DNA of 64,000 nt, from sequence record PP400787, one strand, 5' to 3'. Positions within the stretch are counted from its first letter, which is position 1. Each line of letters opens with the position of its first letter. The notes under the pieces were generated by a model. The model did not search any database. It was not told where the DNA came from and saw only the letters and a program-made list of their open reading frames with translations. Made by a program: the position numbers and the translations under genes. Source of the stretch: Escherichia phage FL23. Positions 7,020-33,776 of the stretch are shown in pieces.

Positions 7020-8048
7020 ATGTCATCAATACCTTGGATTGATAATGAGTTTGCGTATCGTGCATTAGCTCATTTACCTAAATTCACACAAGTAAATAAT
7101 AGTTCAACTTTTAAATTACGGTTTAGATGCCCTGTTTGTGGAGATTCAAAAACCGACCAGAATAAAGCTCGTGGATGGTATTATGGTGATAATAATGAAG
7201 GAAATATTCATTGTTATAACTGTAACTATCATGCACCAATCGGAATATATTTAAAGGAGTTTGAACCCGATTTATATCGTGAGTATATCTTTGAAATAAG
7301 AAAAGAAAAAGGTAAAAGTCGTCCAGTAGAAAAACCTAAAGAACTTCCTAAACAACCTGAGAAGAAAATAATTAAATCTCTTCCGTCATGCGTTAGATTA
7401 GATAAACTGGCGGAAGACCATCCAATTATAAAATATGTAAAAGCTCGCTGTATTCCAAAGGATAAATGGAAATATCTTTGGTTTACAACCGAATGGCCTA
7501 AATTAGTTAATAGCATAGCACCGGGAACATATAAAAAGGAAATACCTGAGCCTCGTCTTGTTATTCCAATTTATAATGCTAATGGAAAAGCTGAGTCTTT
7601 TCAAGGACGTGCATTAAAGAAAGATGCTCCTCAAAAATATATCACCATCAAAGCTTATCCTGAGGCAACAAAAATTTATGGAGTTGAACGAGTCAAAGAT
7701 GGTGATGTATATGTTCTAGAAGGACCTATAGATTCACTTTTTATTGAAAATGGTATAGCTATTACGGGTGGTCAATTAGACCTAGAAGTTGTTCCATTTA
7801 AAGATAGGCGTGTGTGGGTTTTAGATAATGAACCTCGTCATCCTGACACTATTAAGCGAATGACTAAATTAGTTGATGCAGGAGAAAGGGTTATGTTTTG
7901 GGATAAATCTCCCTGGAAATCAAAAGATGTTAATGATATGATTAGAAAGGAAGGTGCAACCCCTGAACAAATTATGGAATATATGAAAAATAATATTGCC
8001 CAAGGGTTGATGGCTAAAATGCGGCTATCTAAATATGCTAAGATTTAA
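7020..8048 (+). CDS. 61: gp61 DNA primase, 342 aa
   Basis: Zinc ribbon CPVCGDS...CYNC; 342 aa; matches T4 gp61 as recalled. Confidence 0.93.
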   Translation: MSSIPWIDNEFAYRALAHLPKFTQVNNSSTFKLRFRCPVCGDSKTDQNKARGWYYGDNNEGNIHCYNCNYHAPIGIYLKEFEPDLYREYIFEIRKEKGKSRPVEKPKELPKQPEKKIIKSLPSCVRLDKLAEDHPIIKYVKARCIPKDKWKYLWFTTEWPKLVNSIAPGTYKKEIPEPRLVIPIYNANGKAESFQGRALKKDAPQKYITIKAYPEATKIYGVERVKDGDVYVLEGPIDSLFIENGIAITGGQLDLEVVPFKDRRVWVLDNEPRHPDTIKRMTKLVDAGERVMFWDKSPWKSKDVNDMIRKEGATPEQIMEYMKNNIAQGLMAKMRLSKYAKI

Positions 8049-8245
8049 ATTAACCCAACCAAAGCAAATGCTAAATCTACGAATGTATCAAGAGTAATTA
8101 CTGGAATATTAACACCATGAGCAATAGCAATTGGTGATAAAACAAAATTCCAGAGTAAAATTCCTACCATAGCAGAAATAGTAAAAGCTATACGTTTCTT
8201 ATTACCTTTTATGGCATTAACAAGTGCCATTAATTTTTGTACCAT
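8045..8245 (-). CDS. small two-helix membrane protein on the opposite strand, 66 aa
   Basis: ATG preceded by AAGGAGG with 4-nt spacer on the - strand; two hydrophobic segments; sits where I recall T4 dam. Confidence 0.45.
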   Translation of the reverse strand: MVQKLMALVNAIKGNKKRIAFTISAMVGILLWNFVLSPIAIAHGVNIPVITLDTFVDLAFALVGLI

Positions 8246-8316
8246 ATGTCCTCCTTATTGCTTTATATATTTATTGTATAATTAATCTACTAACCCATGA
8301 ATTGAAAGGAAAAATA

Positions 8317-8832
8317 ATGGCTTACTTTAATGAATGTTCACAACTGATTGAAGGCGCTGATAAAGCTCAAAATGAATACTGGGATATTCTCGGTGATGAA
8401 AAAGACCCGCTGCAGGTTATGCTTGATATGCAGAAATCTTTACAGGTTCGTTTAGCAAATGACCGCGAATACTGTTATCATCCAGATAAATTAGAAACTG
8501 CCGGTGATGTTGTTTCTTGGATGCGTGAACAAAAAGACTGTATTGATGATGAATTCCGCGAACTTCTGACTTCTCTTGGTGAAATGTCACGTGGTGAAAA
8601 AGATGCATCGGCAGTTTGGAAAAAATGGAAAGCACGTTATATTGAAGCGCAAGAAAAACGCATTGATGAAATGTCCCCAGAAGATCAGCTCGAAATTAAA
8701 TTTGAGCTTGTGGATATATTTCATTTCGTATTAAATATGTTTGCTGGCCTTGGAATGAATGCGGAAGAAATCTTTAAACTTTATTATTTGAAAAATAAAC
8801 ATAATTTTGAACGTCAAGATAATGGGTATTAA
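8317..8832 (+). CDS. 56: gp56 dCTPase/dUTPase, 171 aa
   Basis: From ATG 8317 (MAYFNECSQLIEG...) matches T4 gp56 as recalled; the track ORF start at 8224 is upstream out-of-context extension. Confidence 0.9.
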   Translation: MAYFNECSQLIEGADKAQNEYWDILGDEKDPLQVMLDMQKSLQVRLANDREYCYHPDKLETAGDVVSWMREQKDCIDDEFRELLTSLGEMSRGEKDASAVWKKWKARYIEAQEKRIDEMSPEDQLEIKFELVDIFHFVLNMFAGLGMNAEEIFKLYYLKNKHNFERQDNGY

Positions 8833-9496
8833 ACAAAAATTTTATAGAACATATATCGTAAAAGTTAGGACGCCGAAAGGCGTCTTTTGGTACGCTGGGA
8901 AACATGAATCATTTATTGTAAATCCATATGATGATAAATATCCGGGGTCAGGCAAAATACTATGGAACATATATCGTAAGTATGGTTTTAATTATAAAAT
9001 ACGTTGGTCAAAATGCCATGGTTCTAGAGAAAAATCATATGAAGTTGAACGCGAGCTAATATCTGCATTAAAACGTAAACACCCAGATACTTGCATTAAT
9101 ATTTCTCCTGGTGGTCAGGGTGGAGAAGGAAGAAAATGGACTGAGCAACAACGATTAGAACATAAACTTAGATTAAACAATCCTGAAACAAAAACTCGGA
9201 TGAAGAATTCACAACGTATAGCCCAAAATAGAGCAGAACGAAAAGCTCGGCAATCTGAAGTAATGAAAAAGTTTTATTCGAATGGCGGAAATAAAAAGAT
9301 TTCAGAAGGAACTTCAAGGGCGCAAAGAAAAGCGCCGCATTGGAATGAACCGCTTAAAAGCGAAATACATGAGTTATGGGTTTCTTTAGGTAAACCAGCA
9401 ACAGGCCCGGTTGTAAAGGCGCTTAAAGGAAAATATGATGTAACAAGTTCAGCTCTTAAGAATTTAATTTACTTATTCAGAAAAGAAGATGTATAA
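8822..9496 (+). CDS. segF: GIY-YIG homing endonuclease (SegF/gp69-like)
   Basis: GIY-YIG-like N-terminus (YRTYIVK...FWYAGKH); basic C-terminal DNA-binding region; position between 56 and soc. Confidence 0.6.
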   Translation: MGIKQKFYRTYIVKVRTPKGVFWYAGKHESFIVNPYDDKYPGSGKILWNIYRKYGFNYKIRWSKCHGSREKSYEVERELISALKRKHPDTCINISPGGQGGEGRKWTEQQRLEHKLRLNNPETKTRMKNSQRIAQNRAERKARQSEVMKKFYSNGGNKKISEGTSRAQRKAPHWNEPLKSEIHELWVSLGKPATGPVVKALKGKYDVTSSALKNLIYLFRKEDV

Positions 9497-9529
9497 ATAA
9501 TCATGTAATTTAAATAAAAGGAGAATTAC

Positions 9530-33089: not shown

Positions 33090-33746
33090 TTATTTAGCCC
33101 TTCCTAATATTCTGGCCGCCTGAGCACATATTGATTCAAGGCGGTCATTACTTATATGATCATTTCTATACCAGTACATGGTTATCGTTCCAGCATAGAT
33201 ATTATCCAAATTAAAATATGGACAACTGTACATGTAGTTTATTTCGGGAGTAGGCTTTTTAGTTGGTAAAAAAGCAAATTTTGAGTTGGAATAATAATGA
33301 CGTCCATTTAAATGAACTGCATATTCATCCATAGTTTTATCAACAGGATATCCTCCAAGTGATTTTTCACTTATTGTTGAAGGTAATTTTCCTTCATATG
33401 CTATAATATCAACAAAATAGTTTAAGTTTTTAGGGCGGAAAGAATACACCGCACTAAAGTCTGCCTCAGATGATATATGAACTATCTGGAGTTGTTCCAG
33501 GGCGACAGATTCAAAGCGTGCATTTCTTTCCTTTTCAATAATTTCACTGTATGTTTCATACTTTGATTGCTTGTAGTACTCAAAGAAACTATCTCCCCTA
33601 TACCAAACAATCGCCATTATAAACAAAAGAATTACGACAGCTACCCGGGAAGCAAGAACTTTCCCGGTAGCGTTATCTTTGAACAAGCGATCTAGAACAC
33701 CAAACAGAATATCAGAGGGCGAAAATGATATTCTAGGTGCTGCCAT
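33090..33746 (-). CDS. t: Holin T, 218 aa
   Basis: Matches T4 holin as recalled; single TMD near N-terminus. Confidence 0.92.
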   Translation of the reverse strand: MAAPRISFSPSDILFGVLDRLFKDNATGKVLASRVAVVILLFIMAIVWYRGDSFFEYYKQSKYETYSEIIEKERNARFESVALEQLQIVHISSEADFSAVYSFRPKNLNYFVDIIAYEGKLPSTISEKSLGGYPVDKTMDEYAVHLNGRHYYSNSKFAFLPTKKPTPEINYMYSCPYFNLDNIYAGTITMYWYRNDHISNDRLESICAQAARILGRAK

Positions 33747-33776
33747 AGACCCTCCTTTTAAGGATATTTATTCAAA

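Follow-up and report, generated by a model that had tools for sequence, protein, structure and literature searches.

A conserved small gene between genes 61 and 56 of a dam-less T4-like phage, probably late-expressed and membrane-targeted

Results

Gene order at the locus

The window, by which we mean the whole 64-kb stretch of DNA that was analysed, belongs to a T4-like phage. Over 1 kb at the locus it matches Escherichia phage FL44 (PP400790.1, Tequatrovirus) with 100% identity and many T4-like phages with 95-97%. The gene order along the window is 61.1, 61, a small reverse-strand ORF, 56, a segF-like homing endonuclease gene and soc, and the plus strand corresponds to the strand of early-gene transcription in T4. 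The features of the locus are as follows.

7020-8048, plus strand: gene 61 (DNA primase, 342 aa), convergent with the small ORF
8045-8245, minus strand: the small ORF, a 66-aa CDS known from the ORF list and by homology, orthologue of T4T dam.1, RB32ORF030w and RB69ORF029w (PHROG 2024)
8250-8256, minus strand: Shine-Dalgarno sequence AAGGAGG, 4 nt before the ATG
8256-8257, no strand: junction at which T4-type genomes carry about 880 extra bp, located by three-way alignment, with no trace of dam in the window
8256-8282, plus strand: predicted MotA-dependent middle promoter of gene 56 (MotA box and -10)
8268-8275, minus strand: predicted gp55-type late promoter box AATAAATA (-13 to -6), 22 nt before the ATG of the small ORF
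8317-8832, plus strand: gene 56 (dCTPase/dUTPase; dUTPase_2 domain), divergent from the small ORF

The stop codons of gene 61 and the small ORF overlap by 4 nt. With gene 61 ending at 8048 and gene 56 starting at 8317, the interval between them is 268 bp long (8049-8316), as a sequence-only reading of this DNA had already reported. That reading saw one credible coding unit in the interval, a minus-strand ORF of 66 aa, and the ORF list (threshold 25 aa or more) agrees: the 4-nt overlap aside, 8045-8245 (-) is the sole ORF of at least 25 aa wholly inside the interval. A second ORF on the list, 8224-8832 (+), extends gene 56 upstream in the same frame. The control region left between the small ORF and gene 56 is only 71 bp long (8246-8316) and lines up with the region between dam and 56 in T4.

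The small ORF is a conserved gene

T4T Dam.1 (ADJ39749.1) has the same length as the protein encoded in the window and is 95.5% identical to it in amino-acid sequence. The two genes share a convergent overlap with the gene 61 stop and a Shine-Dalgarno sequence, and differ in their upstream neighbour, which is dam in T4 and the gene 56 middle promoter in the window. The protein also matches the profile of PHROG 2024, a family whose function label is unknown, over almost its whole length (residues 2-66 against profile positions 1-65 of 65, E 5.4e-31).

Searching with tblastn gave 692 phage records with an intact copy of the ORF, at amino-acid identities of 48-100%; about 500 of them are Tequatrovirus at 90% or more and about 190 Mosigvirus at about 50%. 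In every record with inspected annotation it converges on primase gene 61 and adjoins its 3' end. The Mosigvirus copy, RB69ORF029w, likewise lies between 61 and 56, and two metagenomic lineages (68% and 52% identity) keep the order 56, ORF, 61. With a family profile, gp16.1 of Salmonella phage S16 (E 6e-10) and a protein of a Klebsiella T4-like phage (E 5e-9) were recognised as homologues, each at the corresponding position. Members of the family thus occur in Tequatrovirus, Mosigvirus, Gelderlandvirus and the Klebsiella phage. The same profile found no homologue in the Karamvirus and Winklervirus genomes examined, so some T4-like phages can do without the gene. When 1.84 billion cluster representatives were searched exhaustively with a profile, six proteins came back, all of them family members or fragments; the family is thus restricted to enterobacterial T-even-like phages. 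A profile search of all the FL44 ORFs found no paralogue.

The conservation of the interval might have a cause other than coding. The ORF would then be fortuitous, and the DNA would be kept as the terminator or 3' UTR of gene 61, as the promoter region of gene 56 and oriA, or as the template of a late antisense RNA. There is something to be said for this: a plus-strand hairpin followed by a T-run lies inside the ORF at 8211-8230 (-8.9 kcal/mol, z -2.2), the first 75 nt are less variable than the rest (4 against 16 variable sites, few in either case), and no minus-strand terminator was found downstream within gene 61, so that a late transcript would run antisense to it. However, the reading frame stays open across genera at only 27-55% amino-acid identity, and a core of W-N-[FY]...P...[HY]G..(L/I)P..P(L)[DE], with its W-N-F/Y, HG and P..PLD/E motifs, is kept across the family. 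Among eight Tequatrovirus copies, changes are concentrated at third codon positions (6, 2 and 12 variable sites at positions 1, 2 and 3), the amino-acid changes are all conservative, and pairwise dN/dS is 0.07-0.30, well below 1; the strong Shine-Dalgarno sequence is conserved as well. By this codon pattern the ORF is under purifying selection. A role as antisense RNA or terminator would be compatible with coding but cannot take its place, and we regard a fortuitous ORF as barely credible. Judged by its conserved frame and position, the small ORF is a genuine protein-coding gene, the orthologue of T4T dam.1 and RB69ORF029w.

The reference T4 annotations AF158101 and NC_000866 omit the gene, whereas T4T and several newer T4 records list it; omics studies mapped to the AF158101 or NC_000866 annotation will miss dam.1. 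A literature search on dam.1 and RB32ORF030w found no mention of either, and one T4 RNA-seq paper does not mention the locus.

The absence of dam

In T4, dam sits between 61 and 56. The sequence-only reading had placed it there, and the T4T record agrees. A tblastn search with T4 Dam gave no hit at E<=1 in the window or in the rest of the FL44 genome (172.5 kb, overlaps verified), and the absence first noticed at this locus therefore holds for the genome outside the window. The alignment of the window with T4 holds as far as the complement of the Shine-Dalgarno sequence and resumes at the ATTGCTT that follows the T4 dam stop. About 880 bp are missing relative to T4, comprising dam and about 100 bp upstream of it, and the T4 match to a 1001-bp query spans 1882 bp.

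As dam is absent here and present at the corresponding position of T4, the small ORF had been thought a possible remnant of a replaced cassette, and it might instead be a substitute for one, which would make the locus a special rearrangement of this phage. The comparison with other phages does not bear this out. T4T, phage F1 and the L009 type all carry an intact small ORF beside dam, and the coexistence of the two genes in T4 is enough to refute the idea. The ORF is, moreover, intact and under purifying selection by the measures given above, and the arrangement without dam is both the majority and the outgroup state. We give almost no weight to an origin of the ORF in the replacement of dam.

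T4-type Dam (at least 90% identity) is found in 182 phage records, the Tequatrovirus-type small ORF in about 502, and an essentially identical 272-bp dam-less interval in 334, the counts including some GenBank/RefSeq duplicates. Roughly two thirds (about 64%) of sequenced Tequatroviruses thus lack dam at this locus. All the outgroups examined (Mosigvirus, Gelderlandvirus, the Klebsiella T4-like phage and the two metagenomic lineages) have the order 61, ORF, 56 without dam. T4-like phages that are less closely related do have homologues of dam (about 55% identity), but at another place, next to nrdC, 49 and nrdD. With dam-less outgroups and a dam-less majority, the dam-less state is probably the ancestral one, and dam probably an accessory insertion, about 880 bp long, which about one third of Tequatroviruses have at this locus. 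The earlier description of the locus as having lost dam therefore probably has the polarity wrong. It is possible that dam was lost secondarily, by recombination, in the lineage of FL44, T-even genomes being mosaic. On this comparative evidence the absence of dam is unrelated to the small ORF.

A predicted late promoter within a predicted middle promoter

The minus-strand sequence upstream of the ORF reads ...TATACAATAAATATATAAAGCAATAAGGAGGACAT-ATG. The AAGGAGG at 8256-8250 stands 4 nt off the ATG, the good spacing that had been noticed from the letters, and (A)AGGAGG or AAGGAG precedes the ATG in every lineage examined. Further upstream lies the predicted late promoter box, which at -13 to -6 would place the transcript start near 8262 and give a 17-nt leader.

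In T4, a late promoter is a box of 8 bp, TATAAATA, spanning -13 to -6; of the 50 promoters listed, 32 match it perfectly and nine carry A at position -13 (PMC2988020). In T4-like phages other than T4, -13 is often A or T (PMC1524935). These figures make AATAAATA the commonest accepted variant, and to call the element a near-miss to the late consensus, as the sequence-only reading did, is to undersell it: the same variant stands before the holin gene t. The box also lies on the gene's own strand and upstream of it, as the gp55-dependent late genes of T4 have it.

In the 64-kb window, WATAAATA is depleted, with 14 copies against 23 +/- 5 expected. Seven or more of these precede, at 18-34 nt, an ORF with a Shine-Dalgarno-led ATG; among such ORFs are soc, the holin gene t and two of tail-fibre size. 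In the window, AATAAATA stands 18 nt upstream of gene t. Gene t and the small ORF are thus alike in having this box 18-23 nt before a Shine-Dalgarno-led ATG, the promoter of the small ORF being a predicted one.

Comparison between phages points the same way. The sequence NATAAATA is found 19-22 nt before the ATG of the small ORF in five arrangements with differing flanks: the window type, the T4 type (GATAAATA), the L009 type, Mosigvirus and the lineage L017. The T4 box, GATAAATA, is a rarer deviation than the AATAAATA of the window. The surroundings of the box differ as well. In the window it lies within the spacer of the gene 56 middle promoter, in Mosigvirus between the MotA box and the Shine-Dalgarno sequence, and in T4 in dam-proximal, T4-specific sequence. 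A fixed distance from box to ATG in such different contexts argues for selection on the promoter. The lineage L015 and S16 have no canonical late box upstream of the homologue, and a list of 31 RB69 late promoters predicted by hidden Markov model includes none near the locus on the strand of ORF029w (Nolan et al.).

The orientation of the gene, opposite to its early neighbours, had been considered unusual. In T4, early and middle transcripts have a single polarity, opposite to that of the small ORF, but late transcripts may have either (PMC2988020), and a late gene on this strand is nothing out of the ordinary. In a T4 dRNA-seq study, 150 start sites were reported for the phage, 22 of them antisense (10.1101/2024.04.04.588121). 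In the 650 nt that follow the ORF, no terminator was found on the minus strand, which suggests that a late transcript may run antisense into gene 61.

Taken together, the box, its conservation and its position suggest that the small ORF is probably expressed late. Early or middle expression from another promoter, for instance as an exclusion or anti-defence factor, would suit a gene lying among early genes, and Imm and Sp are known as small early membrane proteins of T4. However, a scan of the minus strand upstream of the ORF found no sigma-70-like promoter, and the late box is conserved at a fixed distance from the ATG. We consider early or middle expression extremely unlikely.

The opposite strand of the control region carries the predicted middle promoter of gene 56. 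Its MotA box, TATTGCTTTA at 8256-8265 (+), matches the consensus exactly and is followed by an 11-bp spacer and a -10 element, TATAAT, at 8277-8282. The published consensus, (a/t)(a/t)(a/t)TGCTTtA at 12+/-1 bp from TAtaaT (PMC2988021), accommodates this spacer. Within it lies the late box of the minus strand (8268-8275), and the complement of the Shine-Dalgarno sequence abuts the MotA box, so the divergent promoters physically overlap in the dam-less phages. In T4T, oriA is annotated just inside gene 56. If the two predicted promoters are both used, late polymerase bound at the nested promoter could help to switch off the gene 56/oriA middle promoter and origin priming.

Sequence and predicted topology of the protein

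The N-terminal 18 residues of the protein include five basic and no acidic residues, and no basic residue occurs after residue 18. In the hydropathy profile, residues 19-42 are strongly hydrophobic. They are followed by a conserved loop, HG-x-x-(L/I)P-x-x-P-L-D/E, and a short hydrophobic C-terminal helix. An alignment-based AlphaFold2 model of moderate confidence (pLDDT 76.6) places helices at residues 2-12, 16-42 and 52-63. The last of these has about 12 residues, including two conserved acidic ones, D53 and D57, and at that length is probably too short for a normal membrane span. For RB69ORF029w, one transmembrane segment (residues 21-41) and no signal peptide were predicted (Nolan et al.).

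The sequence-only reading had described a two-helix hydrophobic protein. It was right about the hydrophobic segments, but a second full span is made improbable by the modelled helix at 52-63 and by the single transmembrane segment predicted for RB69ORF029w. From the model and the predicted expression, the product is probably a late-expressed single-pass inner-membrane protein. Its most likely topology, by the positive-inside rule, has the N-terminus in the cytoplasm, one transmembrane segment, and the HG..P..PLD loop and short helix at the periplasmic face.

Database searches added little. Neither Pfam nor NCBIfam matched the protein. A PDB profile search gave only a weak match (E 0.03) to the transmembrane helices of NqrE, which we take to be generic transmembrane similarity. 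A fold search of BFVD returned only family members, together with one protein automatically named 'Holin'.

On the strength of that name, the protein might be taken for a holin or for a lysis protein of the pinholin kind. Class II holins and pinholins resemble it in size (60-70 aa), hydrophobicity and late timing; it is itself small, hydrophobic and probably expressed late. The UniProt name of the OE5505 orthologue is 'Holin', and the promoter type AATAAATA is common to the small ORF and gene t. However, the small ORF differs from that class in having neither a charged C-terminal tail, its sequence ending ...DLAFALVGLI, nor the context of a lysis cassette: its neighbours encode primase and dCTPase, and no endolysin or spanin gene adjoins it. 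There is probably only one full transmembrane segment (about 19-42), the second hydrophobic helix having about 12 residues in the AlphaFold2 model. A canonical holin T is already encoded at 33090-33746 (-) (PF11031, E 2e-117), no holin family in Pfam or NCBIfam matches the small protein, and the name 'Holin' appears on a single automatically named entry. Taking these points together, we think a holin function very unlikely.

Discussion

The best overall explanation of the locus, to which we give a probability of about 0.7, is that the small ORF is a real gene that is expressed late and probably encodes a single-pass membrane protein, and that the absence of dam is a separate and probably ancestral matter. 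The facts that the sequence-only reading took from the letters have all stood; its interpretation is only partly supported. Its suggestion of a late-expressed membrane factor is credible and probably correct, given the late box and the hydrophobicity of the product.

In this form the feature is ordinary and already known, combining an annotated hypothetical gene of T4 itself with a common gene-content polymorphism, the lack of dam. What interest remains lies in the gene, which is conserved, probably late and membrane-targeted, missing from the reference T4 annotation and uncharacterised.

A plausible course of events can be drawn from these predictions. After DNA replication begins, the RNA polymerase modified by gp55, gp33 and gp45 would start at AATAAATA, on the strand opposite to the early genes, and produce an mRNA whose leader is about 17 nt long and whose Shine-Dalgarno sequence is strong. 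The lysine- and arginine-rich N-terminus of the product would stay in the cytoplasm, one helix (about 19-42, with the conserved W-N-F/Y and Pro) would span the membrane, and the conserved loop and short hydrophobic helix would face the periplasmic side or re-enter from it. So placed, the protein may act through a membrane or periplasmic partner on late envelope events such as lysis timing, lysis inhibition or late exclusion. A role in the envelope or in lysis is a guess from location and timing; of the elements of this picture, only membrane targeting and late timing draw support from the sequence.

A more specific version can be put forward tentatively, though we think it unlikely as it stands. 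The product of dam.1 would be functional, working late at the inner membrane of cells infected by T-even phages in a role new to T4 genes, for example the tuning of lysis inhibition or late superinfection exclusion through HG..P..PLD, and in dam-less phages the nested late promoter might also help to switch off the middle promoter of gene 56 and oriA. T4 offers some parallels in the RI antiholin, Imm and Sp, which like the predicted product of the small ORF are small and located at the inner membrane or periplasm. The small ORF is dispensable in some relatives, and no sequence or fold similarity was detected between its product and these three proteins.

The comparison also corrects a misreading: by their distribution, the small ORF has nothing to do with dam being absent, and dam is not a core T4-like gene; the practical value of this is modest. 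FL44 and most Tequatroviruses should be without phage-encoded GATC adenine methylation, which bears on restriction sensitivity, host-range expectations and methylation-aware sequencing.

The L009 arrangement may say something about how dam arrived. There, a 186-aa ORF lies between the small ORF and dam. It has a weak, sub-threshold match to DpnII endonuclease (E 0.0045), and the region upstream of T4 dam still encodes its last 16 residues. The DpnII-like match and the remnant in T4 together hint that dam was brought in within a cassette resembling a GATC restriction-modification system.

Possible origin of dam

Some Tequatroviruses carry an additional ORF between dam and the small reverse ORF, the T4T dam.1 orthologue:

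L009:841-1401, minus strand: 186-aa ORF in the interval between the small ORF and dam.

At E 0.0045, the product shows a weak, sub-threshold match to the DpnII restriction endonuclease; it also contains a PD-(D/E)xK-like motif, DIV...EIK. Its last 16 residues, DEELYNSFFAAINERI, are still encoded upstream of T4 dam (L001:2060-2158). This ORF and its remnant in T4 together suggest that dam may have arrived within a GATC restriction-modification-like cassette that has since decayed. In the more distant T4-like phages EC-F1 (Enterobacter) and RCIP0006 (Klebsiella), a dam homologue (~55% identity) adjoins nrdC, gene 49 and nrdD, and in EC-F1 it is directly preceded by an N4-cytosine methyltransferase gene. 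This difference in location argues, from gene neighbourhood, that dam is a mobile accessory gene among T4-like phages.

Overlapping predicted promoters upstream of gene 56

The predicted late promoter of the small ORF overlaps the predicted middle promoter of the dCTPase/dUTPase gene:

8256-8282, both strands: divergent predicted promoter pair, the gene 56 middle promoter and the late box.

The predicted MotA-dependent middle promoter of gene 56 has a perfect MotA box, an 11-bp spacer and a TATAAT, and the minus-strand late box, AATAAATA, is nested within that spacer. The position of T4 oriA is inside gene 56, just downstream of the overlap. With this arrangement of sequence elements, it is possible that the two predicted promoters interfere with each other late in infection.

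The AATAAATA variant also occurs at the holin gene t (33090-33746, minus strand) and at two ORFs, at about 50.3 kb and 53.5 kb, that resemble homing endonuclease genes. Window-wide, the motif WATAAATA is depleted, with 14 copies against 23 expected, and at least 7 of the 14 lie 18-34 nt 5' of ATG ORFs led by a Shine-Dalgarno sequence. Two examples of the motif are:

33765-33772, minus strand: WATAAATA copy.
9492-9499, plus strand: WATAAATA copy.

A hairpin within the reverse ORF

Near its start, the reverse ORF contains a structure on the opposite, early strand, ~165 nt 3' of gene 61:

8211-8230, plus strand: terminator-like hairpin, an 8-bp stem followed by TAATTTTTGT.

The hairpin has an energy of -8.9 kcal/mol and a z of -2.2. 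Variation is also lower over the initial 75 nt of the reverse ORF, with 4 variable sites against 16 in the remainder, though both are small numbers.

Annotation of the region

The small ORF is annotated in T4T (as dam.1) and in several recent T4 records, but is unannotated in the T4 reference records AF158101 and NC_000866; omics work mapped on the annotation of those two T4 records would overlook it. In the FL44 record, PP400790.1, more than 12 consecutive genes of the nrdC-tk region are named 'thioredoxin', and the name 'molybdenum ABC transporter' is given to genes close to mrh. Such product names have evidently been propagated, and the annotation of this record is unfit for function calls.

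Downstream of gene 56 is an annotated homing endonuclease:

8822-9496, plus strand: segF-like homing endonuclease gene.

Despite that annotation, it has no Pfam match at E<=0.001. It overlaps the end of gene 56, an arrangement shared with T4.
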